This document shows, piece after piece, positions 5,213 to 39,524 of a stretch of 64,000 nt of DNA. Under the pieces are notes generated by a model. The model was not told where the DNA came from. It did not search any database and was given only the letters and a program-made list of their open reading frames with translations. This stretch comes from a virus. Its lineage: Duplodnaviria; Caudoviricetes. Every line of letters starts with the position of its first letter. Positions within the stretch are counted from its first letter, which is position 1. The stretch spans positions 2,566-66,565 of IMG/VR virus record IMGVR_UViG_3300021399_000014. The stretch is one strand, 5' to 3'. A program made the position numbers and the translations under genes.

Positions 5213-5466
5213 TGTTTAATTATCACATTCCTTTAATCATTGCAGTAATTTTGTGCTTGCTGTGTATACTGATCGGCTTTGGAATAGGGACGTTTATCAT
5301 ATGCCCGCCGAAGGAGATGACTGATGGGGATCTGGTTATCGAGGTAGATAAGCAGTCGAACCAGATAAATATGTATTTGGCGTTGAATACCAGCCCGGTT
5401 CAGATAATAAGAGAATACCATACAGGAGATCTGGCTCACTTGCGGATGCTTATCAAAGATGTCTGA
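5212..5466 (+). CDS. N-terminal TM protein
   Basis: TAATG coupling to the previous gene; hydrophobic N-terminus. Confidence 0.65.
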   Translation: MFNYHIPLIIAVILCLLCILIGFGIGTFIICPPKEMTDGDLVIEVDKQSNQINMYLALNTSPVQIIREYHTGDLAHLRMLIKDV

Positions 5467-5469
5467 CAA

Positions 5470-5487
5470 TTACAGCTCCTATAGTGG
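5470..5487 (+). promoter_or_regulatory. Phage early promoter motif copy
   Basis: TTACAGCTCCTATAGTGG. Confidence 0.65.
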
Positions 5488-5521
5488 TAACTGTCAATTA
5501 TATTTGTAGAAAGGAGTAAAT

Positions 5522-6004
5522 ATGACAGAAGCTGAAGAATTGAGGAATCTGATAGTGAGTGATGTCCTCAAGCAGTACAAGGAGGAAGAAGATACTGAAG
5601 TCAGGATCGACCTGAACACGCTCGATTGCTTGACCAATATCATATCGAGCAACAAGAAAGCGGAAGCCGAACTTGAGCGGATCAAGATGGAGCTGGAGAA
5701 GGCCGAGATGGAGAATCGTCTCGAGCTCGAAAAGCAGAAAATCGAAATCGAGGCCAGAATGGAACTCGAGAGACAGAAAGCTGAATTCGAGGTTGAGAAG
5801 ACCAAGATCGAAGCTGAGGCTGGTAACAAGAGATCAACCAAGGACGTCGTCCGCACTGTTATCGACGTGGCCGGCAAGCTGGTAGTGGCGGGGTTGACCC
5901 TATTCGGCATCTGGAAGCAGACTAGTACTGTGGAAAGGGCAGAGGAACAGGAAACATACGTTAGATCCGATTCGCAGAAATTCTGGATTAAACCCAGATT
6001 GTAA
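5522..6004 (+). CDS. Coiled-coil protein with near-C-terminal TM helix
   Basis: E/K-rich heptads then VAGKLVVAGLTLFGIW; RBS GAAAGGAG. Confidence 0.7.
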   Translation: MTEAEELRNLIVSDVLKQYKEEEDTEVRIDLNTLDCLTNIISSNKKAEAELERIKMELEKAEMENRLELEKQKIEIEARMELERQKAEFEVEKTKIEAEAGNKRSTKDVVRTVIDVAGKLVVAGLTLFGIWKQTSTVERAEEQETYVRSDSQKFWIKPRL

Positions 6005-6078
6005 TTGAGTTACCGAATAAGAGGTCTTGATAGAAATATCAGGGCCTCTTTGTTTTTCGACTTTTTGATGTACACAAT

Positions 6079-6096
6079 TTACAGTTTCTATAATAG
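6079..6096 (+). promoter_or_regulatory. Phage early promoter motif copy
   Basis: TTACAGTTTCTATAATAG. Confidence 0.65.
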
Positions 6097-6134
6097 AAAC
6101 TTATTATATTTGTTTTTAGGAAAGGAGGAGAACA

Positions 6135-6197
6135 ATGTCGTTTGGTATTGTGCTTATTTTACTTGGTGTTGCTTGGATCATATTCGTAGATAAGTAA
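6135..6197 (+). CDS. 20-aa single-TM peptide (not in ORF track)
   Basis: MSFGIVLILLGVAWIIFVDK*; AAGGAGGAG RBS; own promoter and terminator. Confidence 0.55.
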   Translation: MSFGIVLILLGVAWIIFVDK

Positions 6198-6272
6198 CAC
6201 CAAAAGAGGAGTACATGCGAAAAGTGTGACTCCTCTTTTCTTTTTGACTGATTATATTTTAGGAGGTACAAA

Positions 6273-6692
6273 ATGGGAGCCGTATATGATATTTATTTAA
6301 CTCTGCGCGGAATAGAGGACGAAGACGAGATTGTAAGAAAAACAGCGGAATTCGTAGCAAATCATCCTAGCTATCGATTTGTGGACGCAGCATATAAACT
6401 CGATGAGAATTCGACTTTACTTGATGCACTGGATTCGATCTTTGGCGGATATGTTACTTCGACCTATTACGAAGAGGACAATTTTGGAAGATGCATACCG
6501 GAGCCGGACGAGTTCACCGCGCAATTTGACGCTGGCTATGGCTGGGCCGATGCTATGACGGAATGGTTCGAGTATATTAATCCTGCGTTAGGGGTCACTT
6601 CGAGTCTTCGTATTTATCCAGACGAACATCCGATAAAGATGATCAAATGGAGTAATGGCGAGATTGTTGACGGTGATCTTGCTAAGCTCTGA
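6273..6692 (+). CDS. Acidic hypothetical protein
   Basis: RBS AGGAGG; strongly D/E-rich. Confidence 0.7.
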   Translation: MGAVYDIYLTLRGIEDEDEIVRKTAEFVANHPSYRFVDAAYKLDENSTLLDALDSIFGGYVTSTYYEEDNFGRCIPEPDEFTAQFDAGYGWADAMTEWFEYINPALGVTSSLRIYPDEHPIKMIKWSNGEIVDGDLAKL

Positions 6693-26604: not shown

Positions 26605-27157
26605 CCATCGCCGTCTTAAGGGACAGCATGCGTTGTTCAGTCCATCGAATCCGTCATGGATTAGATATGACGCAGACAAAGTTCGATCATATTTGCAATC
26701 TATTGAAGCTAGAGCTCTTGGTACTAGACTTCATGACTACGCTTGTCAAAGCATCGAACTAGGACGAAAACTTCCGAGCAGACCGGCGGACACAATATCC
26801 CTTTATGTGAACGATGCCATCAAACTCGGAATGACACCAGAGCAATGCTTATATTATTCGCAGTATTGCTATGGTCACGCAGATGCTATTAAATTCGATC
26901 GTGGCACGATCAGAATACATGATCTTAAAACCGGCTCGCTTCCTGGCAAAATGGATCAGCTATTGATCTATGACGCTCTGTTCTGTCTCGAATATGGATA
27001 CGATCCGCATAGCATCAAGCACAATCTCAGGATTTATCAGTATGACGACATTAACGAAGTCACGCCGCATCCTGATGATATTGCAGAGTATATGGATCAG
27101 ATTATCAAGGTAGACGAGATCAAAACTGGCGCAATGGGGGAAGCGAATTATGAGTGA
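26579..27157 (+). CDS. Cas4-like / DUF2800-type PD-(D/E)xK exonuclease
   Basis: HALFSPS...GTRLHD...GHADAI...IHDLKTG...QLLIY motifs. Confidence 0.7.
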   Translation: MSSSILWNDHRRLKGQHALFSPSNPSWIRYDADKVRSYLQSIEARALGTRLHDYACQSIELGRKLPSRPADTISLYVNDAIKLGMTPEQCLYYSQYCYGHADAIKFDRGTIRIHDLKTGSLPGKMDQLLIYDALFCLEYGYDPHSIKHNLRIYQYDDINEVTPHPDDIAEYMDQIIKVDEIKTGAMGEANYE

Positions 27158-29957
27158 ATTATATTCTATATGGGAAGGCGAGTTCCTATCACATGAGGGT
27201 AAAGCTCATGACGAGAACCCTCCTGGACGAGGTTCTGGTAGATATGGCTGGGGTACTGGTGAACGAAAGTACCAGCATCTTCCTTGGGCGACCAAGGCTG
27301 GTATGGAAATAAAGCAGCTTCAAGCTGAAGGTCTAAAGATGAAGCAAATCGCAGCTGCTCTCGGGACGAGTCAGGCTAATCTGCGAAGGTGCTTAAGCAT
27401 AGACAAAGAGGCTCGCGACATTCGCGACAGGAACGAGCTCATCAGACTCAGGGATATCGAAGGCGTTACGTCTATGCGAGAAATGTCCAGGCGCACAGGC
27501 ATTCCTCTCACTACCGTGGGCAATCTCTTGAGAGAAAACACCCAGGCTAAGATAGAACGTAATGCTAAGTATATGGAGATTCTGCGTAAGCAGATTGAAG
27601 AGAAAGGGCATATCGACGTCGGAGCTGGGACTGAACATAACTTAGGCGTTAGCTCCACAAAGATGAACCAGCTGGTTAAGTCCCTTGCTGAAGAAGGCTA
27701 TGTACTGTCTCATCCTAAAGTGCCGCAGGCCGGAACCAGCTATGATACAAATATGCTCGTTCTGTCCAAGAAAGGTACGCCGAAGAATTATATTTATAAC
27801 CACATAGAAGATATTAAGACATTAGACGATCTTCATGTGGTGGACGACGGTAACGGTCCAAAAGAAGCTAAGTTCCATGATCCTAAGAGTATTGACTCAT
27901 CGAGAGTAGCTGTTAAATACAATGAGGAAGGCGGACTCGCTAAAGATGGACTAATTCAGTTAAGGCGTGGAGTTCCTGAACTTAATCTCGGCAACAGCAA
28001 CTATGCGCAGGTTCGTATTGCCGTTGACGGTACACATTACATTAAGGGAATGGCCGTCTATGGTGACGACGAAGACTTCCCGAATGGTGTCGACGTTCTC
28101 TTTAACACCAATAAGAAACTCGGCACTCCCATGATGGGCGCTAAAGACAACACTGTGTTCAAGCCGATCAAAGGTGAAGGACTTCAGGCATTTGGCGCTA
28201 CAATCAGAGACCAGAACGACTGGACTGATGAGAACGGTAAACACCATGAGGGTCTCGTAAACATTGTTAAAGAGCAGGGTGTATGGCATGAGCAGCAAAG
28301 AACGCTTGCCTCACAATTCTTGGCTAAGCAATCACATCAGCTGGCCAAGAAACAGCTTGACCTTGCTTACGCCGATAAAGAGAACGAGTTCAAGGAAATT
28401 CAGGCACTTGACAATCCCGTTGTTAAACAGCGCATGCTCCGGTCTTTCGCTGAAGAATGCGACGCTGCTGCTGTACATCTCAAAGCTGCGGCAATTCCGA
28501 GACAGTCATGGAACGTTATTATTCCAATGACCACTCTTAAAGATAACGAAATCTATGCTCCCGCCTATAAAGATGGCGAAGAGGTGGTCTGCATTCGTTA
28601 TCCTCACGGCGGTAAATTTGAACTTGTACAGCTTAAGGTCAATAACCGTAACAAAGAGGGCAAGAAAGTACTGGGTTCGGACGCCTTTGACGCCGTAGGC
28701 ATAGGCAAATCGTCTGCTGACAAGCTCTCTGGTGCTGACTTTGATGGCGATACAGTTCTTGTTATACCTAACCCTAAGAAGCCCACTAAAAATGGGAAAT
28801 ACAAGTATGAGATTTCTGTTAGAGACTCGCTCGAAGGACTCAAAGACTTTGATCCTAAGATAACTTATGGTGGCGTAGCTGAAAAAGACAGGATGACGAG
28901 CAAAAACACTCAGCGCCAGATGGGCATCATATCTAATCTTATTAGTGATATGACGATCCTTGGGGCCGATGATGATGAACTTGCCAGAGCAGTAAGACAT
29001 AGCATGGTCGTTATCGACGCTGAGAAGCACGGGCTTGATTACAAGCGGTCGTATAAAGACAACAAGATCGCTGAGCTCAAGAAGAAGTACCAAGGCGGCG
29101 GAGGCGTAGCGACACTTCTGTCTAGAGCCAAGAACCCCAGGTACGTGCCTGCCCGAGTCACCAACAACCCCTATGATATCGATGAAGAGACTGGCGAACG
29201 CATCTGGAATAACCAGAAAGAACGTAAGTACATCGATAAGGACGGGGTAGAGCGTACTATCAAGCCCCGCAACATCAAGACGTACTGGATGGATACTGTA
29301 TCTGATGCTCGAGAATTAATCTCCGATCGGAACACGGTAATAGAGAACGTTTACGCTAACTTTGCTAATGAGTGTAAGGCTTTGGCTAATCGTGCGCGCA
29401 AAGAACTCGTTCGTTCTAGTAAAGAGGAGCACCTTGAATACAGCAAGGAAGCAGCCAAGACCTATGCAAAAGAAGTAGAGGAGCTTAATCGCAAGCTTTT
29501 GACCGCACAGAAGAACGCGCCCAGAGAGAGGGCGGCGCAAAGATTAGCCAACCTCAGGGTAAAGGATGCGGTAGAGAATGCAAAGCTGAACGGAACCGAG
29601 CTGACTGATAGCGAGGTACGTAAGCTCCTTGCTAAACAGATTGAACCTGCCCGCAGAGAGGTGGGAGCTAAGAAAGAGCGGGTCAAGTTCACCGAACGTG
29701 AGTGGGAAGCAGTGCAGAAGGGGGCTATTCATCAGACCACCCTGGCCAAGCTTCTAAGCAATGCGGATGAGAAGAACTATAAGACCCTGGCTACCCCTAG
29801 AGACCAGCGTGGGCTGTCACAGTACAAGATCAACCGGATAAAGGGTATGCTAGAGGCCGGGGTAGATACCCGTACCATGCAGTGGATAGCCGACTACATG
29901 GGAGTGTCCCTGTCAACTATTGCTGCAGTCAAGTCTGGTAAATACGACAAGAAGTAA
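27150..29957 (+). CDS. Single-subunit two-barrel RNA polymerase (YonO / RdRP-like) with fused HTH domains
   Basis: RYPH (28596-28607), catalytic LSGADFDGD (28731-28751), GIISNLI and VIDAEK motifs; two N-terminal and one C-terminal HTH-like segments. Confidence 0.8.
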   Translation: MSELYSIWEGEFLSHEGKAHDENPPGRGSGRYGWGTGERKYQHLPWATKAGMEIKQLQAEGLKMKQIAAALGTSQANLRRCLSIDKEARDIRDRNELIRLRDIEGVTSMREMSRRTGIPLTTVGNLLRENTQAKIERNAKYMEILRKQIEEKGHIDVGAGTEHNLGVSSTKMNQLVKSLAEEGYVLSHPKVPQAGTSYDTNMLVLSKKGTPKNYIYNHIEDIKTLDDLHVVDDGNGPKEAKFHDPKSIDSSRVAVKYNEEGGLAKDGLIQLRRGVPELNLGNSNYAQVRIAVDGTHYIKGMAVYGDDEDFPNGVDVLFNTNKKLGTPMMGAKDNTVFKPIKGEGLQAFGATIRDQNDWTDENGKHHEGLVNIVKEQGVWHEQQRTLASQFLAKQSHQLAKKQLDLAYADKENEFKEIQALDNPVVKQRMLRSFAEECDAAAVHLKAAAIPRQSWNVIIPMTTLKDNEIYAPAYKDGEEVVCIRYPHGGKFELVQLKVNNRNKEGKKVLGSDAFDAVGIGKSSADKLSGADFDGDTVLVIPNPKKPTKNGKYKYEISVRDSLEGLKDFDPKITYGGVAEKDRMTSKNTQRQMGIISNLISDMTILGADDDELARAVRHSMVVIDAEKHGLDYKRSYKDNKIAELKKKYQGGGGVATLLSRAKNPRYVPARVTNNPYDIDEETGERIWNNQKERKYIDKDGVERTIKPRNIKTYWMDTVSDARELISDRNTVIENVYANFANECKALANRARKELVRSSKEEHLEYSKEAAKTYAKEVEELNRKLLTAQKNAPRERAAQRLANLRVKDAVENAKLNGTELTDSEVRKLLAKQIEPARREVGAKKERVKFTEREWEAVQKGAIHQTTLAKLLSNADEKNYKTLATPRDQRGLSQYKINRIKGMLEAGVDTRTMQWIADYMGVSLSTIAAVKSGKYDKK

Positions 29958-29969
29958 GGAGGAACGAGT

Positions 29970-30248
29970 ATGGCTAAAGACTATTGGGTCACTACCTCGA
30001 AGAATCCTTATGACCCCTTTACCCAGTGGGCTGACTGGTATCATTATGACGAGTATGAGAAGCGCTACTGTACAACTGGTTTGATGGCGCGTTTTTCATC
30101 GTGTAGTGACGATGACCCGGAAAGCTGGAAAAGGGAATCTGATTTACGGGCAGCTACCATAATTATTAACGAAATACCTCTCCTGTCAGACGACGAAGAG
30201 TATGTGCTTGTTACAAGAGATGTCCCTGATGAAGACGAAGATTCATAG
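29970..30248 (+). CDS. Small acidic protein following the RNAP gene
   Basis: AAGGAGG RBS; TTSKNPYDPFTQWADWY motif. Confidence 0.65.
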   Translation: MAKDYWVTTSKNPYDPFTQWADWYHYDEYEKRYCTTGLMARFSSCSDDDPESWKRESDLRAATIIINEIPLLSDDEEYVLVTRDVPDEDEDS

Positions 30249-30249
30249 G

Positions 30250-30830
30250 CTTGACCTCCTCCTTTAATACAAGACATAGTGTGATTATTATAGCTTTGTA
30301 TGCACTTGCTTTTACACATCTGTATGCAAAGCTATTGATTCACACTATAACGATCTTAACGTGTCTTTACAACACCATACTCACTGCACAAACCTTATTG
30401 TTATGCATACAGTTGCTTAAAGATATAGAATCAAACAAATTAATTTAGTTTCTTTTAGTATTTTAGTTATTAACAAACAGAATAAAAAGTATTTGACTTT
30501 GTTTTAATCTATTCAAAACAAAACTTTTTAACTAATTTAAACTATTTGTTTAATGTTTTTAAGTATTTTTGTTATATTGAATGGATTTTGTTTGTTTTTA
30601 ATCTCATTTAAAGGCAGAAATAGGTATAAACATGCTTAAAAACGAAGAAATTAAAAGATTTTCAATCAAAAATCCTTTTGCAGGCTTCAAAAAGCATACA
30701 AAACGCTCACCACTCTGGTCTATTTCGACAAAAAGAGGGTAGAGGGGGGTCCAAAAAATGCACACCCCCACCCATATCGCGCCCATCTTTATTTTTCCCC
30801 CGGAGGATTATATTTTCAAAACTTTCTAGT
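30250..30830. other. Non-coding AT-rich / G-C tract region, candidate genome end (cos/pac)
   Basis: No credible gene; very AT-rich 30420-30660; GGGTAGAGGGGGGT...CACCCCCACCC symmetry; lies just upstream of the terS/HNH/terL operon. Confidence 0.4.
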
Positions 30831-30991
30831 CCCGCTTTCTGCGCCCCGTAAGCCAAGGACGGCATTTTTTCTAAGTCGCTACTGCTTAGGGTAAGTGTCT
30901 GTCTCCTTTCTGCCGTTCATAGTACCTCCTAATTTACTATAAAAGTCTATCGGGACGCAGAAAGAGGTATTAGAAAAGAAAGGAAAGTCTA

Positions 30992-31342
30992 ATGAAAAGC
31001 AAAGAATCTCCTCCGATTTCTTCTAGAAAGTCTCGTGGAAGAGCGAGGTCGCCTGAAGAACGGGAGGCTCAGTTAATTTCTTTGGCTATGGACCGTGTCG
31101 AAGAGCGTATGATGAACGGTACTGCGTCTTCACAAGAGTATGTACACTTCCTCAGAGCGGCTTCAACCAAAGAAAGATACGAAACTGAAAAGGTAGCACT
31201 AGAACTGGAACTCGTTAAGGCTAAAACAGAGAATCTGCGCCTGCAACAGAAGAACGAAGAGCTATATGCTAATGCTCTTAAGGCGTTCAAACGCTATACA
31301 GGAGCGGACGACGAGGACGAAGACGATGAGGACCTATACTGA
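30992..31342 (+). CDS. Probable terminase small subunit
   Basis: First gene of the packaging operon; helical, EEREAQLISLAMD...ASSQEYVHFLR; position-based call. Confidence 0.5.
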   Translation: MKSKESPPISSRKSRGRARSPEEREAQLISLAMDRVEERMMNGTASSQEYVHFLRAASTKERYETEKVALELELVKAKTENLRLQQKNEELYANALKAFKRYTGADDEDEDDEDLY

Positions 31343-31757
31343 TCTGCTCAAAATCTCTTCGTTTGAAGAGCGTCTAAAATATCTGATGCTTTACGGTAAA
31401 GTTGGTCATGATACATTTGGCTATGACCGGTATCTTAACCAGTACCTATATCAGCGATCAGAAGACTGGAAACGAATTCGTAAATACGTTATTAATCGTG
31501 ATAACGCTTGTGACTTGGCGCATCCAGATTACGAAATTCATCCTGACGGCAGAAGATACATTATATTAGTTCATCACATGAACCCAATTACCAAAGAGGA
31601 TCTTCTGAACCGCTCTGACATTGTGCTTGACCCAGAGTTCCTAATTACAACAACTAGAGACACACACAACATTATTCACTATGGCTTCACCAAGTCCAAA
31701 CGTCCGACACTGATTGAACGGACGCCTAACGATACTTGCCCTTGGAGAAAGAGGTAA
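31326..31757 (+). CDS. HNH endonuclease (packaging-associated)
   Basis: WKRIRKYVINRDNACD...VHHMNP...THNIIHYG. Confidence 0.8.
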   Translation: MRTYTDLLKISSFEERLKYLMLYGKVGHDTFGYDRYLNQYLYQRSEDWKRIRKYVINRDNACDLAHPDYEIHPDGRRYIILVHHMNPITKEDLLNRSDIVLDPEFLITTTRDTHNIIHYGFTKSKRPTLIERTPNDTCPWRKR

Positions 31758-31762
31758 ATGCT

Positions 31763-32116
31763 ATGGCCGTAAACGACAGCATCTTAACTAGTGTAAAACT
31801 TTACAGTCTGGTCCCTAAAGAGACCACAATTTACGATGCTCAGATCATCGACCATATCAATGCGCAGTTTAATACTGTGAAGCAGCTTCTCAAGGGCTTC
31901 AAAGGCTACGTGATCGTAGACGAGCATGACACTTGGGAAGATATAGGAATCAGCGATCCGACACTGCTATCGGCAATAATCGATTACGTGAAGATTGCTG
32001 TTAATTTAAAATTTGACCCGCCAACGAATTCCTACCTGGTTACACTCCGTAAGGAGCAGCTGGCAGAAGCGGAATGGCGGATCTGCAACGACTATTCATG
32101 CGTGGAGGAAACGTGA
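31763..32116 (+). CDS. Putative head-tail connector (gp6-like)
   Basis: SILTSVK...DAQIIDHIN...LKFDPP...EAEWR pattern recalled from related phages. Confidence 0.5.
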   Translation: MAVNDSILTSVKLYSLVPKETTIYDAQIIDHINAQFNTVKQLLKGFKGYVIVDEHDTWEDIGISDPTLLSAIIDYVKIAVNLKFDPPTNSYLVTLRKEQLAEAEWRICNDYSCVEET

Positions 32117-32526
32117 GTACGACTTTAGTGATCGGGCTTCCTGGCACCGGTAAAACTACTTATGCGAAAGAGAATCGTGGTGATGCGCTAGTCTACGACT
32201 TGGACTATCTCAAAGCGGCTCTTACATATTCGGATGTTCACAGCCCAGACGACGAGGACGCAAGAAAGGTGGCTAACGCTTTTCTGGCATCTTTTTGTTT
32301 ATTTGCGCCTCTTCAGCGTAGGGACTGCTTTATCATTCGAACGGCTCCTAAGTTGGACGAACTTAAAGTATTAAAACCGGACAAACTTGTCGTTATGACT
32401 AAAGAATACGACATTTCCAACCGTGCAGATTTTCATGATGTCGACAAAGAACTCTATAACATTCGCATCACAGCATGCATCAAATGGTGCGACAAGAACG
32501 GAGTCGATATTGAAATTAAGGAGTAA
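32113..32526 (+). CDS. Small P-loop NTPase/kinase
   Basis: GTG start; LVIGLPGTGKTTYA Walker A. Confidence 0.7.
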   Translation: MSTTLVIGLPGTGKTTYAKENRGDALVYDLDYLKAALTYSDVHSPDDEDARKVANAFLASFCLFAPLQRRDCFIIRTAPKLDELKVLKPDKLVVMTKEYDISNRADFHDVDKELYNIRITACIKWCDKNGVDIEIKE

Positions 32527-32528
32527 CT

Positions 32529-33671
32529 ATGGCTTACAACAGATGGCTATCACCAGTTTATTATCGTGGTATTGAACTAGCGTCAGACCATCTTGAGCAT
32601 CATGGAGTTTTAGGACAACGAAAAGGCAAACGTAATGGTCCTCCTTATCCTCTGGACCGCTCAGTATCTAATGGGCATAAACTTCTTAAAGGAGACGGTT
32701 CGCCTCAGGGAAAGAAGAAACGAAAACAGAAAACGGTTTTTGTCTCTGGTTCTTCTAAAACACAAGACGAAGCTTCTGGTTATTACCGTAAAGAACTCCC
32801 TAAAGATATTCAGAAGCAGCTCGATGACCATATCAGAAAAGGTAATCGTATCATCGTAGGCGATGCTCCTGGCATTGATAGGCAGGTTCAAGACTATCTG
32901 AACGCTAAGAAATACAGAAATGTGGAAGTCTATGGACCAGGGAAAGAAGTTCGATACTCTGCAAATTCCAAGTGGAAAACCAATCCGATTGACGATCCTG
33001 ATCATGAACCTGGGTCCAAAGAATGGCTAGCTAAGAAAGACATAGCCATGACTGAAGCAGCCGATGAGGGGCTAGCAATTGTATTGGACGAAGGTGCAAA
33101 AGCCACGAGAAAAAACGTTCAACGTCTGTCTGACAGCGGTAAGGGTGTTAAGGTCTATTCTCTTAATAAAGACGGAACTGATAACTGGGAAGACGATTGG
33201 GATAGAAAATGGAATACGACGTACGCTAGTAAGGACATTAAGAAAGCTAACGATATCTATAATACGTTATCCAAACAGGAAAAGTATTTCTTGACGGCCG
33301 AAGAAAATTCAAAGCGATACGTTAGTCGTGAAGAATATGGTAAAAAAGGGACCAACGCCTATTCATTAATAGAACAATATAAAGATACGCCGATTTCGGT
33401 TATCGACATATGGAAAAATGATCGTGGTGGCGCAGACGTATCTATCGCAGTCAGAAATGATAGCAAATATAGGCATAAAGGATATGCAAGCCGTGCCTTA
33501 GAGAATGGCATTAAGTATTTTTACGATCACCCGGAAATCGAGTATTTAATATGGGGCGTTAATCATAAAAACAGACCTAGTATTGAATTAGCGAAGAAAT
33601 ATGGATTTTATCTATACGATAGCCGAGACGACGGCTGGGATATCTATACGTTAGATCAAAAGAAGAGGTAA
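32529..33671 (+). CDS. HHG-leader protein with SLOG (YspA-like) and GNAT acetyltransferase domains
   Basis: Leader LEHHGVLGQRKG; VFVSGSS...IIVGDAPGIDRQVQ...KDIAMTEAAD SLOG pattern; YRHKGYAS...NRPSIELAKKYGF GNAT pattern. Confidence 0.7.
   Translation: MAYNRWLSPVYYRGIELASDHLEHHGVLGQRKGKRNGPPYPLDRSVSNGHKLLKGDGSPQGKKKRKQKTVFVSGSSKTQDEASGYYRKELPKDIQKQLDDHIRKGNRIIVGDAPGIDRQVQDYLNAKKYRNVEVYGPGKEVRYSANSKWKTNPIDDPDHEPGSKEWLAKKDIAMTEAADEGLAIVLDEGAKATRKNVQRLSDSGKGVKVYSLNKDGTDNWEDDWDRKWNTTYASKDIKKANDIYNTLSKQEKYFLTAEENSKRYVSREEYGKKGTNAYSLIEQYKDTPISVIDIWKNDRGGADVSIAVRNDSKYRHKGYASRALENGIKYFYDHPEIEYLIWGVNHKNRPSIELAKKYGFYLYDSRDDGWDIYTLDQKKR
32598..32653 (+). repeat. 56-bp leader-coding repeat, copy 1 (copy 2 at 33713-33768)
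   Basis: Near-identical DNA encoding HHGVLGQRKGKRNGPPYPL in two adjacent genes. Confidence 0.85.
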
Positions 33672-33676
33672 TCATA

Positions 33677-34636
33677 ATGTACAACAGATGGACTTATAGT
33701 GACGAGTTGTACCATCATGGAGTTCTGGGACAGCGAAAAGGCAAACGTAATGGTCCTCCATATCCTCTTTACAGGCAGGAGCGATTCAAATCCCAACGCC
33801 CTGACGGTAGCCCTATCACGTCTAAAAAAGCCTATAAAAAGGCCATGCAGGTAGAGCGGGCTCAGAAAAAAGAGGAGCGCAGCAGTCACCCTAAAGGGAC
33901 AGCAGAGGACCGTAAAGAGCGAGACAGTGTAGCGGCAAGATTTAAGCGCGCTTATCGCCAGTATCGTAATGAACAAAAAGAGACAGTAGAGAGAAACAGA
34001 GTTCGTAAGGAAGCATATGATAAGGCTAAAGACCGCCTTGATAAGTCTTATCTTCCAGAGGATCGAAAAAAGAAGCTTCTCGAGGATACAAAGAACTGGA
34101 AAAGTAATGACGATAGCGCCAAGAAGATTAACGATGCTATCGACAAGTACGAAACAGAGGAGAGAGAAGCGGCTAAGTCCCATGGAACTGCTGAAGAGGT
34201 TATGAAGTTCCGAGAATCGTTTTCTAAAGACGAATGGAAGGAAATCGCAGATCGCCTTGAACAGGAAAACCGCGTTAGAAAACTTACATCGGACACGACT
34301 TCCGGTCAGCAGAATCAGAACAATAAAGGTGGCAATCAGCAAGGGACAAGCTTTGTACCTGAGAAGTTTAACGACAAGAAAACTCAGAAGATTTATGACC
34401 GAGGACGTGCTACTACTGTTTGGAAAAATAGAGACAAGTTTACACCCGAACAGCTAAACTCTATTGCCGCCAGAATCGAAGCGGAAGATAAAATAGCAAA
34501 ATACGCTAATAACTCCGTGGATCCCAAAGGCAACGCTGCTTTGAGATTTGAAAAAATAGTCGATATTCTTTCTACAATGGGGAAAGGAGCCGAGGCCATC
34601 AGCAAGATCAAGAAGCTATTCCCCGAGGACAAATAA
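33677..34636 (+). CDS. HHG-leader basic helical protein
   Basis: Leader ELYHHGVLGQRKG; K/R-rich; internal repeat G.A..V.K.R..F...E...I..R.E.E twice. Confidence 0.7.
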   Translation: MYNRWTYSDELYHHGVLGQRKGKRNGPPYPLYRQERFKSQRPDGSPITSKKAYKKAMQVERAQKKEERSSHPKGTAEDRKERDSVAARFKRAYRQYRNEQKETVERNRVRKEAYDKAKDRLDKSYLPEDRKKKLLEDTKNWKSNDDSAKKINDAIDKYETEEREAAKSHGTAEEVMKFRESFSKDEWKEIADRLEQENRVRKLTSDTTSGQQNQNNKGGNQQGTSFVPEKFNDKKTQKIYDRGRATTVWKNRDKFTPEQLNSIAARIEAEDKIAKYANNSVDPKGNAALRFEKIVDILSTMGKGAEAISKIKKLFPEDK

Positions 34637-36384
34637 TGAGCTTATCTAATACAGCGACGCCAAAGTATTACGGTATGTTCCGAGACAAGGTTCTTCGAGG
34701 TGAGATTCCAGTCTGTCGAGAGATTGAGATGCAGATGAACCTTATCGACAAGCTCATCGAAGACCCACAATACTATTACGATGACAAGGCCGTAGAAGGC
34801 TGGATTGCGTTTTGCGAGGAAGAGCTTACTCTTACTGACGGCGCGGATCTGCATCTACTGGATTCGTTTAAACTATGGGCTGAAGATGTATGGGGCTGGT
34901 ACTATTTTGTCGATAAGAAAGTCTGGAAACCAGGACTCCATGGTACAAAAGGACGCTATATTCATAAGCGAGTAAAGATGCGCTTACGCAACAAGCAGTA
35001 TCTTATCGTCGGACGAGGCGCTTCTAAATCCCTTTATGCCACATGTCATCAGGCTTTTGAACTTACCTGCGACGGCGCAACAACATATCAACTTACAACA
35101 GCCCCGACTATGAAGCAGGCTGATGAAATTCTGTCACCTTTCCGCACAGCTATCGTCCGTTCTAAAGGACCATATTTCCAATTCTTAACAGATGGCTCTC
35201 TCCAGAACACAACTGGTTCTAAAGCCAATCGAGTACGTCTCACCTCAACCAAAAAAGGCATTGAAAATTTCATGACGGGGTCTCTTCTTGAGATTCGTCC
35301 TATGTCTATACCGAAGCTTCAGGGAATGAGACCGAAGATGGCAACAGTTGACGAATGGCTTTCTGGCGATATTCGAGAAGATCCTATAGGTGCTATCGAA
35401 CAGGGCGCGGCTAAGGTTAAGGATTGGCTTATTATAGCCACAAGCTCAGAGGGAACAATACGAAACGGCTGTGGCGATACCATCAAACTGGAGCTGATGA
35501 AAATTCTCAAGGGGGATTACGTCAACCCGCATGTATCGATTTGGTGGTATAAACTTGACGATATTTCGGAAGTAGCCGATCCAGATATGTGGATAAAAGC
35601 TAATCCGAATCTCGGCATAACGGTGTCATATGAAACATATCAGACCGAAGTCGAAAGAGCCGAGAATGCTCCAGCGGCTAGAAACGATATTCTGGCTAAA
35701 AGATTCGGTCTGCCTATGGAAGGATATACTATATTCTTCACATATGACGAGATACAACGCCATAAGCGCAAAAGAGATTATTGGCAAATGGCTTGTGCTA
35801 TGGGCGCTGACTTATCACAGGGCGATGACTTCTGTGCATTTACTTTTATGTTCCCTCTCCCCGGCGGCAAGTATGGTATTAAGACAAGAAGTTATATCTC
35901 TGATCTTACTTATCATAACTTGCCGCTTGCTATGCGCCTCAAATACGATGAATTCCAGAAAGAAGGAAGCTTGGTCGTAATGGAAGGCGCTGTTCTTGAT
36001 TTAAACGACGTCTACGATGACTTAGACGCATATATTCAGGAACACGAGTACGACGTCAGATGCTTTGGCTATGACCCGTACAATGCTAAAGAATTTGTCA
36101 ATCGATGGGAGCTTGAAAACGGTCCTTTCGGTATTGTCAAAGTTATACAGGGTTCCAGAACAGAGTCTGTTCCCCTTGGCGAGTTGAAGAAGCTTGCTGG
36201 GGAGCGGATGCTTTTGTTTGACGAGGCCCTGATGGAGTTTGCGATGGGTAACTGTGTAACTATCGAAGACACTAACGGAAACCGCAAACTCCTTAAGATG
36301 CACCGTGAACAAAAAATCGACAATGTGTCTGCAATGATGGACGCTTTTGTCGCTTACAAACTGAATAAGGATGCTTTTGAATAA
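34636..36384 (+). CDS. terL: Terminase large subunit
   Basis: Walker A-like VGRGASKS, Walker B ATVDEW, nuclease GADLS..DDF, C-terminal KIDNVSAMMDA. Confidence 0.9.
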   Translation: MSLSNTATPKYYGMFRDKVLRGEIPVCREIEMQMNLIDKLIEDPQYYYDDKAVEGWIAFCEEELTLTDGADLHLLDSFKLWAEDVWGWYYFVDKKVWKPGLHGTKGRYIHKRVKMRLRNKQYLIVGRGASKSLYATCHQAFELTCDGATTYQLTTAPTMKQADEILSPFRTAIVRSKGPYFQFLTDGSLQNTTGSKANRVRLTSTKKGIENFMTGSLLEIRPMSIPKLQGMRPKMATVDEWLSGDIREDPIGAIEQGAAKVKDWLIIATSSEGTIRNGCGDTIKLELMKILKGDYVNPHVSIWWYKLDDISEVADPDMWIKANPNLGITVSYETYQTEVERAENAPAARNDILAKRFGLPMEGYTIFFTYDEIQRHKRKRDYWQMACAMGADLSQGDDFCAFTFMFPLPGGKYGIKTRSYISDLTYHNLPLAMRLKYDEFQKEGSLVVMEGAVLDLNDVYDDLDAYIQEHEYDVRCFGYDPYNAKEFVNRWELENGPFGIVKVIQGSRTESVPLGELKKLAGERMLLFDEALMEFAMGNCVTIEDTNGNRKLLKMHREQKIDNVSAMMDAFVAYKLNKDAFE

Positions 36385-36396
36385 ACGGAGGTAATA

Positions 36397-37680
36397 ATGC
36401 CAACGATAATGCAACGCATCCAGCACGCCTGGAACGCATTCAGAAACCCTAGGGACCCGACTTATACAAGTATTGGACCGTCATACTCATACAGACCTGA
36501 TCGGTTCCATTTTACCAGAGGCAACGAACGCTCAATTGTGACTACTGTATTCAACCGAATTGCTGTAGACGCGGCAGCGGTTGGTATCGAACACGTAAAG
36601 CTTGATCAAAATGGAAGATATAAAGACACATTAGCGACCGGACTTAATACGTGTTTGACGCTTAGCGCTAACGAGGATCAGACAGGACGAAGTTTTATAC
36701 AGGATGTAGTCCACTCGATGTTTGACGAGGGATGTGTCGCGATTGTTCCGGTTGTTACCGACTCCGATCCTCTATTTACGCAGACATACGATGTATACAG
36801 CGTGAGGACCGGAAAAATTGTCCAGTGGTATCCGCATCATGTAAAAGTGCGAGTATACAACGAAGATACTGGGCAGCAGCAGGACGTACTGTTACCCAAA
36901 TCTATGGTTTGTATCATAGAAAACCCATTCTATGCGATCATGAACGAACCGAACAGTACGCTTCAAAGACTCATCAGAAAATTGAATCTTCTGGACTATG
37001 TTGATGAACAGTCTTCGTCCGGAAAGATCGATCTTATCATACAGCTACCGTACGTCATTAAGTCTGATGCTCGTAAGAGACAGGCCGAAGAGAGACGTCA
37101 AGCCATCGAAGACCAGTTGGCCGGATCCAAATACGGTATCGCTTACACCGATGGCACTGAGAAAGTTACCCAGCTCAACCGATCAATAGAAAACAATATA
37201 TGGACCGAAGTCAAGGACCTGCAAGCCATGCTGTACAATCAGTTAGGCATTACTGAAGCGGTTTTGAATGGTACTGCGGACGAACAGACGATGATTAATT
37301 ATTACAACAATACCATCGAACCTATTCTGTCTGCGATTGCTCTGGAAATTCAGCGCAAATTCCTTACCCCGAATGCTCGGACAAGAGGACAGGCCATCCG
37401 TTTCTATAGAGACGCATTCAAACTCGTATCTGCAACAACGTTTGCTGAGCTCGCAGACAAGCTTACCAGAAACGAGATTGCTACGTCTAACGAACTTAGG
37501 ACATCTATTGGCTGGAAACCGTCCGACGACCCCAAAGCAGATATGTTAATCAATGCAAACCTCAATCATACAAACGAGGACCTCGGACTTGGTGTAGTTG
37601 GTAACAATGAAGGTAGCAGAGTACAGTCCATCGTTGACCGTTTTCGCGATCAGCCATTAGGACGACGAACAACTAAATAG
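36397..37680 (+). CDS. Portal protein
   Basis: Follows terL; 427 aa; NRIAVD...GCVAIVP...IENPFYA...YYNNTIEPI HK97-like portal pattern. Confidence 0.85.
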   Translation: MPTIMQRIQHAWNAFRNPRDPTYTSIGPSYSYRPDRFHFTRGNERSIVTTVFNRIAVDAAAVGIEHVKLDQNGRYKDTLATGLNTCLTLSANEDQTGRSFIQDVVHSMFDEGCVAIVPVVTDSDPLFTQTYDVYSVRTGKIVQWYPHHVKVRVYNEDTGQQQDVLLPKSMVCIIENPFYAIMNEPNSTLQRLIRKLNLLDYVDEQSSSGKIDLIIQLPYVIKSDARKRQAEERRQAIEDQLAGSKYGIAYTDGTEKVTQLNRSIENNIWTEVKDLQAMLYNQLGITEAVLNGTADEQTMINYYNNTIEPILSAIALEIQRKFLTPNARTRGQAIRFYRDAFKLVSATTFAELADKLTRNEIATSNELRTSIGWKPSDDPKADMLINANLNHTNEDLGLGVVGNNEGSRVQSIVDRFRDQPLGRRTTK

Positions 37681-37694
37681 AGGAGATGATCAAA

Positions 37695-39524
37695 ATGGTG
37701 AAAAATTACGATTTTCGTGGCTGGGCCACACGTAATGATTTGCTATGCGCCGACGGCAGGACGATCAGGAAAGACGCTTTTAAGGAGTGCGATGGAAAGA
37801 AAGTACCACTTGTATACAACCATCAGCGGTCCAGCGTTCATGACGTTCTTGGCCACGCTATTCTGGAGAATAATCCGGAGGGCGTAATAGCATATGGTTA
37901 TTTCAATGACACAGAAGAGGGTCGAAACGCTAAAGCAAAAGTTCTGCACGGCGATATCGACTCTCTTTCTATTTGGGCAAATCAGCTCAAACAGGTCGGC
38001 GGAGACGTTCTACACGGCGTTATCAGAGAAGTCAGTCTCGTGCTCGCTGGCGCAAATCCCGGAGCTTTTATCGACGACGTGATCTCTCATGCTGGATCTG
38101 AGTATTTCGAAGGCGAGATTTTCACAGGCGAATCCATCGAGCTGTATCACGCCGACGACGAGGAAGACAGCAAGACCGATGGCAAAGACGCCGAGGACAG
38201 CGCGCCTAAAACTATCGGAGCCGTTCTGGACACTATGAATGATGAACAGAAAGAGGCTGTCTTGCAACTGATCGGACTCGTAACCGAAGACCAGGGAGCC
38301 GACGAGGACGACGATAAAAACGACAAAGACGAAGCTCCCGATAAAACTGAAAATTCCGAAGGAGGAAAAACTATGAAGCACAACATCTTTGACCAGGCTT
38401 CTGGCGGTGTGTACGCTGGTGCGCCTGTTGACGCCCTTACAATGAATGCGATTAAAGAAGACGCTAAGAGACTTGGCTCCATGAGAGCTGCCGTTAAGTC
38501 CAGGATCGAGAGCGGCGAACTCACTCATGCTCTGACCGTCCCTATGGATGGCATGGAAGGCCCCTCTGCCGAGACAGCAGATCAGACTTACGGTTTCCGT
38601 GATCCCGATATGCTCTTCCCTGAGTATAAGAGTCTGAACACCCCGCCCGAATGGATCAAGAGAGATACCGGCTGGGTGAGCACTTTCCTGAACGGCGCTC
38701 ATCATACACCCTTCTCCCGCATCAAGTCTATGTTCGCTGACCTTACAGAGGACGAGGCTCGTGCAAGAGGTTACATCAAGGGCAAGCTGAAGAAAGAGCA
38801 GGTCTTCACTCTGCTGAAGAGAACTACTGATCCTCAGACTGTTTACAAAAAGCAGAAGATCGACAGAGATGACACTATCGACATCGTTGATTTCGACGTC
38901 GTTGCATGGATCAAGGGCGAGATGAGAGGTCAGCTGGATGAGGAGATTGCAAGAGCAGGTCTTATCGGCGACGGCAGACTCGCTTCTTCCGACGACAAGA
39001 TCCAGGAAGCTCACATCAGACCTATTGCTACAGATGTTCCGCTCTTCACTATCCGTTCTGAGGTTGATCCCGGCAAGAACGAGCAGGAGATGGCTAAGAA
39101 CTTCATCGTTGCTGCTATCAGAGCGCGCAAAGATTACAAGGGTTCCGGCAATCCGATTCTCTTCACTACCGAGGATATGCTCACTTCCATGCTGCTGATC
39201 GAGGACGGTATCGGCCACTTCCTGTATGCTTCCGAGCAGGAACTTTGCACCAGACTTCGTGTCAGAAGCATTGTTACTGTTGAGGTTATGGAAGGCTTCC
39301 ATGTCGACACTACAGACGGCGATCAGTCCACCGGCGTTGAGCTTCTGGGTCTTATTGTCAATCCTGCGGACTACACCTACGGTGCTGACAAGGGCGGTGC
39401 AGTCAACATGTTCGACGACTTCGATATCGACTACAACCAGATGAAGTATCTGATCGAGACCAGATGCTCCGGCGCGCTGACCAAGCCTTTCAGCGCAATC
39501 AGATTCACTAAGAAGGCTGCCTGA
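37695..39524 (+). CDS. Prohead protease - scaffold - major capsid fusion
   Basis: N-terminal HK97 protease (YNHQ...LGHA...LSIWAN...EVSLVLAGANPGA), acidic linker, C-terminal capsid domain. Confidence 0.85.
   Translation: MVKNYDFRGWATRNDLLCADGRTIRKDAFKECDGKKVPLVYNHQRSSVHDVLGHAILENNPEGVIAYGYFNDTEEGRNAKAKVLHGDIDSLSIWANQLKQVGGDVLHGVIREVSLVLAGANPGAFIDDVISHAGSEYFEGEIFTGESIELYHADDEEDSKTDGKDAEDSAPKTIGAVLDTMNDEQKEAVLQLIGLVTEDQGADEDDDKNDKDEAPDKTENSEGGKTMKHNIFDQASGGVYAGAPVDALTMNAIKEDAKRLGSMRAAVKSRIESGELTHALTVPMDGMEGPSAETADQTYGFRDPDMLFPEYKSLNTPPEWIKRDTGWVSTFLNGAHHTPFSRIKSMFADLTEDEARARGYIKGKLKKEQVFTLLKRTTDPQTVYKKQKIDRDDTIDIVDFDVVAWIKGEMRGQLDEEIARAGLIGDGRLASSDDKIQEAHIRPIATDVPLFTIRSEVDPGKNEQEMAKNFIVAAIRARKDYKGSGNPILFTTEDMLTSMLLIEDGIGHFLYASEQELCTRLRVRSIVTVEVMEGFHVDTTDGDQSTGVELLGLIVNPADYTYGADKGGAVNMFDDFDIDYNQMKYLIETRCSGALTKPFSAIRFTKKAA

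Follow-up and report, generated by a model that had tools for sequence, protein, structure and literature searches.

In phage T4, the internal proteins IPI-III and Alt carry a capsid-targeting sequence that the prohead protease gp21 removes at L/I-x-E, and virion RNA polymerases (RNAPs) are represented by the N4 vRNAP and by gp66 of the crAss-like phage phi14:2. MuF (SPP1 gp7-like) polymorphic toxins were reportedly described by Jamet and colleagues in 2017. MuF-toxin (MuF-VIP2) fusions have been described (PMC7302621), and two reports on giant phages (SPN3US, phiKZ-like; PMC5694885, PMC10052503) describe propeptides of ejection proteins that are cut by the prohead protease. Here we analyzed 64,000 nucleotides (nt) of a gut-type phage (Caudoviricetes), referred to as the window, which make up nearly the whole of a 66.6-kb IMG/VR virus record bearing direct terminal repeats (IMGVR_UViG_3300021399_000014, positions 2,566-66,565). 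Two consecutive genes of the window share an N-terminal leader (hereafter the tag) in front of different bodies (cargo 1 and cargo 2). Taken as a whole, the sequence data are best explained if the tag is a DUF7211-type head-loading peptide that mimics the hydrophobic-x-His motif of the spacer in the protease-capsid fusion protein, a reading to which we assign a rough probability of 0.55. The tagged genes, scored with a hidden Markov model (HMM) of the tag, and their shared parts are listed here by window position; the slash follows the histidine of the hydrophobic-x-His motif, and pI is the isoelectric point.

32529..33671, + strand: cargo gene 1, 380 amino acids (aa); tag, K-rich linker, SLOG-fold domain and GNAT acetyltransferase; tag HMM 43.0 bits, E 6e-13; pI 9.3
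32529..32663, + strand: tag of cargo 1, residues 1-45; M-A-YNRW, 10-residue insert, SDHLEH/HGVLGQRKGKRNGPPYPL
32598..32653, + strand: copy 1 of the 56-nt direct DNA repeat, encoding HHGVLGQRKGKRNGPPYPL
33677..34636, + strand: cargo gene 2, 319 aa; tag and basic all-helical body; tag HMM 60.1 bits, E 2.7e-18; pI 9.7, net charge +21
33677..33769, + strand: tag of cargo 2, residues 1-31; MYNRWTYSDELYH/HGVLGQRKGKRNGPPYPL
33713..33768, + strand: copy 2 of the 56-nt direct DNA repeat

Comparison of the two open reading frames (ORFs) by BLASTP revealed a common leader (residues 3-62 of 32529 against 2-49 of 33677, E 2e-15) and no similarity past it (after about residue 60), where other segments gave E > 8. 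In AlphaFold2 models the leader was disordered in cargo 1 (residues 1-64, predicted local distance difference test score, pLDDT, <50) and in cargo 2 (residues 1-36). The original prediction had described a common leader conserved as a 56-bp repeat, unrelated bodies (SLOG+GNAT and a basic helical protein), and a place of both genes on the + strand within the packaging operon directly before terL; BLASTP together with the 93% identity of the repeat copies, BLASTP with Pfam and the structure models, and the gene order, respectively, bore these points out. Codons in the repeat were identical at 15 of 19 positions, with 7.0 expected from synonymous usage (P 1e-4), which indicates recent sequence exchange between the two tags. 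The same codon identity would suit a functionless leftover of recent duplication or gene conversion as the origin of the shared N-terminus, a highly improbable explanation that is already contradicted by the distribution of the tag, since it heads tens of thousands of unrelated proteins in phages of Actinobacteria and Firmicutes and keeps its L, H and G invariant.

The tag is a disordered basic peptide of about 30 residues, with a first half (D/E)-(D/E)-L-x-H and a second half, G-x-x-G-x-(K/R)-(W)-G plus a basic tail, that forms a family-specific module. The Pfam family DUF7211 (PF23847) has the motif core L-x-H-x-G-x-x-G-x-K-W-G near the N-termini of phage proteins; L, H and three G are invariant in the tag and Trp is near-invariant (conserved in at least 90% of the family). 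An HMM built from 101 tags from outside the window, most of them of the canonical KWGVRR type, scored 60.1 bits on 33677 and 43.0 bits on 32529, and no other window ORF exceeded 2.2 bits. Because these intermediates recognize both leaders, and because the invariant L, H and three G are kept, the window leader is judged from its sequence to be a divergent relative of DUF7211, not a Pfam-defined member; the window copies represent an NGPPYPL sub-variant. A GQRKG variant with Lys, the same as in the window, occurs in metagenomic relatives (P0005, P0007, P0009, P0012).

Searches for the leader retrieved 24 proteins with the same N-terminus and differing bodies, 2 of which carry Pfam DUF7211, and proteins with the same bodies as the window cargo carry PF23847. 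A 67-tag profile, searched against 1.84 billion cluster representatives, matched 53,248 of them at E≤1e-3 and 13,059 at E≤1e-10; the top 150 matches contained 2-5 tags each at a spacing of about 220 residues, and all of the top matches that were scanned (57/57) were Pfam DUF7211. The bodies behind the tag included GNAT, ADP-ribosyltransferase exoenzyme, papain-fold glutamine deamidase, transglutaminase-like, P-loop kinase, DUF5662, Barstar and 2'-5' RNA ligase folds, and the majority had no known domain. The leader HMM search that the original prediction had proposed as a way of listing attached domains thus returned many unrelated bodies. Its picture of a portable tag on swappable bodies held, given these bodies and a number of tag genes that differs between syntenic loci; its further claim of loading into the head has indirect support. 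A literature search found no paper mentioning "DUF7211", and the motif strings gave only unrelated papers.

A probable link from the tag to the head is a motif in the capsid precursor, which is encoded downstream of the portal gene.

37686..39524, + strand: prohead protease (S78), acidic spacer and HK97-type capsid protein in one chain; phrog_3270 E 7e-206; Pfam S78 22 bits (cut-off 21)
38058..38582, + strand: acidic spacer, residues 125-299, pI 4.2; VISH135/A, ELYH155/A, TMKH232/N, ELTH281/A

All four His residues of the window spacer lie in hydrophobic-x-His. Among 12 fusions of the lineage, whose spacers have net charges of -23 to -54, one of L/I/V/M/F/Y occupied position -2 in 63 of 73 spacer His residues (background 24%) and in 57 of 124 His residues outside the spacer (Fisher P 1e-8), and spacer sites such as ELELYH/AE are nearly equal to DELYH/HG of the tag. 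In 150 multi-tag proteins, hydrophobic-x-His was 9-fold enriched in the 30 residues N-terminal to each internal tag (2.58 vs 0.28 per 100 aa, P 1e-101), and the residue after these boundary sites was mostly S, D, A or G. Since the spacer must go for capsid maturation and polyproteins are cut at module boundaries, hydrophobic-x-His is probably the cleavage site of the head protease. A sequence search of the PDB with the fusion protein, made for a mature N-terminus, gave no match, and a preprint on actinobacteriophage capsids gives no cleavage sites.

Tags also occur inside proteins: gp10 of Streptomyces phage TaidaOne (L038, 5956-6951) has the order tag-GNAT-tag-body, ORF7 of Lactococcus phage 1706 contains two to three tags, and ReqiPoco6 gp015 has one at residue 336. 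A further set combines DUF5662 (HRNPHHWQHW motif) with an internal NGPPYP-type tag and a variable C-terminus (L112, L116, L117, L120, L122 at about 5461-6441, L068, L073), and in prophage-like relatives this gene is found in the replication module beside an SNF2-like helicase, at a distance from terL. Such internal tags after DUF5662, in replication-module genes far from terL, together with the hydrophobic-x-His at module boundaries of multi-tag proteins, would fit a tag that is a processing signal only: late in infection, tagged proteins and polyproteins would be matured or activated in the cytoplasm by the phage protease, and would not be packaged. We regard this as distinctly unlikely: the protease is fused to the capsid protein and, following the HK97 paradigm, acts within procapsids that have already assembled; the tagged ORF7 is entered as structural in the 1706 record; and the constant position at terL and portal and the uniform basic charge of the tagged proteins would be left unexplained.

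On the + strand, the RNAP gene (27150-29957) is followed by an intergenic gap and then by a tight packaging operon, consisting of a phrog_4259 gene, an HNH endonuclease, a head-tail connector, a P-loop gene, 32529, 33677, terL, the portal gene and the protease-spacer-capsid fusion.

30992..32526, + strand: upstream synteny block of phrog_4259 gene, HNH endonuclease, head-tail connector and untagged P-loop (AAA_33) gene; order repeated in related loci
34636..36384, + strand: large terminase (terL); Pfam TerL_nuclease E 7e-35
36397..37680, + strand: portal; Pfam Phage_portal E 1e-21

This arrangement was common to all 36 viral loci compared (phrog_4259, HNH, connector, tag genes, terL, tag genes, portal, protease-capsid fusion), in which terL was 64-91% identical to that of the window, 1-7 tag genes were present per locus, and the RNAP lay upstream in every locus where it was within range. 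Among loci from bacterial assemblies, 53 of 77 shared the synteny markers, and 5 of the remainder were on contigs with markers elsewhere; the marker-bearing loci came mostly from Clostridia metagenome-assembled genomes, and some from isolates, e.g. Butyrivibrio sp. INlla21 and Clostridiales bacterium CCNA10. Wherever the flanks were informative, tag genes flanked terL in one phage lineage (Lactococcus 1706, Streptomyces BI, Faecalibacterium FP_oengus). A tblastn search of GenBank phages with the window's own leader gave no match, and the same search with a canonical tag (from L016) gave 158 records; RNAP homologues numbered 250 in GenBank phages. Tag and RNAP share the genus labels Streptomyces, Gordonia, Arthrobacter, Microbacterium, Curtobacterium, Rhodococcus and Faecalibacterium. 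The preprint 10.1101/842583 defines this lineage with the RNAP as signature gene and does not mention the tag. A search for related loci with one multi-tag protein (P0264) found none.

The genes flanking terL and the portal gene, together with the K/R-rich module of the tag, raise the alternative that the basic second half binds DNA, terminase or portal, so that cargo rides with the DNA or sits at the portal and the resemblance to the spacer is incidental; SPP1 gp7 and MuF proteins are portal-bound precedents. This is quite improbable, because the two invariant residues L and H belong to the first half rather than to the basic one, and because spacers and polyprotein boundaries contain the motif much more often than chance would allow.

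Analysis of charge revealed pI >8 in 98% of the tagged ORFs (n=114, median 9.9), compared with 21% of neighboring ORFs; the two cargo proteins and the RNAP of the window have pI values of 9.1-9.7. Basic proteins packed with DNA and a very acidic internal spacer fit internal head proteins. In the record of Lactococcus phage 1706 (EU081845), ORF6, 7, 11, 12, 13, 17, 71 and 75 are labelled structural, predicted functions are marked "putative" and the remaining ORFs "unknown". ORF7, a tagged gene before terL, and ORF75, an RNAP homologue of 37% identity, are each labelled "structural protein", and the ReqiPoco6 record likewise reads "gp75 structural protein". The labels in the 1706 record probably go back to mass spectrometry of virions by Garneau and colleagues in 2008. 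Because the 1706 record lists the tagged ORF7 and the RNAP homologue as structural, head loading of the tagged proteins is likely, and it is the best-supported reading, at somewhat better than even odds; the place beside terL and portal, the similarity of the first half of the tag to the spacer motif and the basic charge also speak for head association.

As an alternative, the tagged proteins would enter the procapsid as assembly or internal structural factors (scaffold-like core, DNA-condensing) that are degraded or retained, and would not be effectors delivered to the host. The tagged ORFs are for the most part small (median 230 aa) and basic and have no known domain, cargo 2 resembles scaffolds and core proteins in being basic and built of long helices, and the lineage lacks a separate scaffold gene, all of which such structural factors would account for. 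We nevertheless consider this alternative unlikely, since the bodies include many enzymes or domains of toxin type (GNAT, ADP-ribosyltransferase, glutamine deamidase), and since the number and content of the genes vary freely among close relatives, which is unusual for essential assembly factors.

The third protein to which the leader had been ascribed is the RNAP.

27150..29957, + strand: single-chain two-barrel (YonO/RdRP-like) RNA polymerase with fused helix-turn-helix modules and DFDGD motif; phrog_4291 E 4e-291, residues 27-930
27180..27260, + strand: N-terminal half-tag of the RNAP, residues 11-37; EFLSH/EG, insert, SGRYGWGTG

The phrog_4291 match and the DxDGD catalytic loop (DFDGD) assign the enzyme, on sequence criteria, to the RdRP/YonO-like two-barrel family; its Pfam RdRP score was 20.8 bits, under the cut-off of 23.8. 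All 119 RNAP homologues opened with hydrophobic-x-H-x-G (7.6% in shuffles; median His position 15), and an SGRY(P)WG-like motif then followed in 118 of them. The typical form is ELYHYG-T-(P/K)-RH-SGRYPWGSG, and the window RNAP has an insert-bearing form (LSHEG...PPGRGSGRYGWGTG). The cargo-tag HMM matched the first half at >5 bits in 41 of the 119 homologues, up to 17.1 bits, with controls at ≤5.9 bits (shuffles) and ≤2.5 bits (internal pieces), and profile-profile alignment (hhalign) matched the RNAP N-terminus to the tag over 12 columns (P 6e-5). Within the window, hydrophobic-x-H-x-G occurred in the first 50 residues of 3 of 85 putative genes, namely the RNAP, 32529 and 33677. As judged from these comparisons, the RNAP carries a half-tag, with the site half shared at the family level and a second half of its own (SGRYxWG). 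The N-terminus of the window RNAP has the sequence that the original prediction had quoted. The proposal that the RNAP bears a looser version of the leader stands for the first half and falls for the whole tag. A candidate second site in the RNAP at Y-Q-H43 was dropped, as position -2 is often N or G in homologues.

A sequence TTACA-N5-TATAAT was found 23 times at ≤1 mismatch (1.6 expected), mostly on the + strand and between 1729 and 26258; all copies were in the early/replication half save one (40961), and the last copy of that half (26243) lies upstream of the operon ending with the RNAP. The distance from TTACA to the -10 box is too short for an ordinary -35 element. Use of these sites by the phage RNAP would require that the polymerase be brought in by the virion.

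Several observations weigh against the head-loading reading. The N-terminus of the window RNAP scored -0.6 to 0.9 bits against the 101-tag HMM, which is noise; the original prediction had set this score beforehand as a test, and the RNAP failed it. The tag of 33677 reached 10.7 bits against PF23847 (E 0.36; gathering cut-off 27 bits), the bare leader of 32529 gave no match to it, and both window tags have Lys in place of the near-invariant Trp. The evidence for tagged ORF7 and the RNAP homologue in virions is record annotation, and the literature search found no experiment on the tag. We know of no precedent for cleavage after His in this protease family. The residue after the His of the tag is H or Y, whereas spacer and boundary sites are followed by S, A, G, D or N; with no small residue there, the L-x-H of the tag may bind or dock uncut. 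Finally, the putative cut precedes the conserved module of the tag, whereas in T4 the targeting sequence is cut off.

Under the head-loading reading, the tagged proteins would be made late, together with the packaging genes, and would dock on the protease and acidic spacer inside the assembling procapsid. The capsid-tethered S78 protease would trim them at hydrophobic-x-His while cutting up the spacer, and the trimmed proteins, basic in charge, would stay with the DNA as internal proteins of the head. The window cargo in this scheme would be a SLOG+GNAT enzyme and a basic helical protein, and the RNAP, with the same first half and its own SGRYxWG second half, would probably be loaded by a related route. 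That the cargo would leave for the host together with the DNA is an assumption made solely by analogy. A broader and more tentative proposal, which we hold at clearly less than even odds, is that a very large siphophage lineage of Gram-positive bacteria uses DUF7211 as its universal, portable tag for head loading, a protease pseudo-substrate that copies the hydrophobic-x-His sites of the capsid precursor to dock cargo; fast-changing enzymes and toxins would be loaded and then injected, and a sister half-tag would load the single-chain RNAP for early transcription from phage-specific promoters.

The bodies of the two cargo proteins were analyzed by structure modelling and profile searches.

32724..33191, + strand: SLOG-fold (YpsA/LOG-like) domain of cargo 1, residues 66-221; VIA-align matches
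33276..33668, + strand: GNAT acetyltransferase domain of cargo 1, residues 250-380, with R-x-x-G-x-A acetyl-CoA motif (RHKGYA); Pfam PF13302 43.9 bits (cut-off 25.4)

The AlphaFold2 model of cargo 1 (mean pLDDT 80.5) showed a disordered segment (1-64), a Rossmann-like domain (66-221; pLDDT >90) and the GNAT domain. VIA-align matched residues 66-221 to YpsA (2nx2; Z 13.4, 149 aligned) and TM1055 (1rcu; Z 13.6), so that the modelled Rossmann-like SLOG/LOG fold places them in the SLOG superfamily; the domain had no Pfam match. G-S-S-K-T and G-D-A-P-G-x-D were invariant in 37 homologues, and the domain is a conserved adaptor that is fused to differing C-terminal domains in relatives. A weak PADLOC match of the domain to the STALD domain of Thoeris ThsA (E 0.009) was seen. 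That the phage carries this domain to bind nucleotide signals is conceivable but without support. Residues 250-380 are assigned as a GNAT acetyltransferase by Pfam score, predicted fold and acetyl-CoA motif, all present; Foldseek and VIA matched them to protein acetyltransferases (Z 16). The GNAT core of TaidaOne gp10 resembles that of a rumen protein (P0013) by eye, and on this likeness one cargo domain may move together with the tag between phages of Actinobacteria and those of Firmicutes.

The model of cargo 2 contained helices only after the disordered tag. A helix motif, G-(T/A)-A-x-E-V-x-K-x-R-x-x-F-(S/T)-x-(D/E)-(E/Q)...R-(L/I)-E-x-E, appears twice in this protein (residues about 170-205 and 243-278). 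An S-D-E-E-L...R-L-x-x-E helix motif was considered as a general second module and rejected, being present in just 6 of 114 tagged ORFs, the FP_oengus protein included.

Among the neighbors, the P-loop (AAA_33) gene immediately 5' of the tagged genes (32074-32526, 150 aa) is untagged; proteins joining tag and AAA_18 exist in relatives (P0019, P0196). In the intergenic gap that separates the RNAP operon from the packaging operon, a 25-nt A/T-rich repeat occurs in 3 copies (30437-30604).

If the head-loading reading is true, a 30-residue peptide would be enough to send any protein to the head of widespread gut, rumen, dairy and soil phages, and tens of thousands of unannotated "DUF7211" proteins would be explained as virion cargo, which would point to a large reservoir of enzymes that are candidates for injection to counter defences or to take over the host. 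The tag would offer a simple handle for loading proteins into phage particles, and virion delivery of a YonO-type RNAP would become directly testable. It would also give a second example of the T4 capsid-targeting principle, in phages with protease, scaffold and capsid in one chain.

Compared with described families and systems, the window tag has the motif core and the N-terminal position in phage proteins in common with Pfam PF23847, a family given no function, and differs from it as an NGPPYPL sub-variant with Trp replaced by Lys and a score below the cut-off. In SPN3US and phiKZ-like phages, many head-internal proteins including RNAP subunits are, as proposed here, processed at a short motif shared with the capsid precursor, whereas motif, protease family and virion scale are different; to our knowledge, no portable tag of about 30 residues has been described in them. 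As in MuF proteins, changeable toxin or enzyme domains are joined to a module, here a putative one, for head association encoded beside the portal, but MuF is a folded domain of about 250 residues, and neither cargo 1 nor cargo 2 had a Pfam or PHROG match to Phage_Mu_F. With respect to virion RNAPs, the window enzyme belongs to the YonO-type two-barrel family, and its 1706 homologue is annotated as structural; we know of no N-terminal loading tag reported for the N4 vRNAP, phi14:2 gp66 or YonO-type RNAPs. The proposed likeness to the T4 capsid-targeting sequence is one of working principle, not of sequence membership: unrelated cargo proteins bear a short peptide at the N-terminus, the putative protease site follows a hydrophobic-x-(charged) logic, and basic cargo, modifying enzymes included, would be packed with the DNA. 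In contrast to T4, the conserved module here follows the putative His-ending cut, tags are repeated inside polyproteins, and the S78 protease and scaffold-like spacer are fused to the capsid protein, in phages of siphovirus type with Gram-positive hosts.

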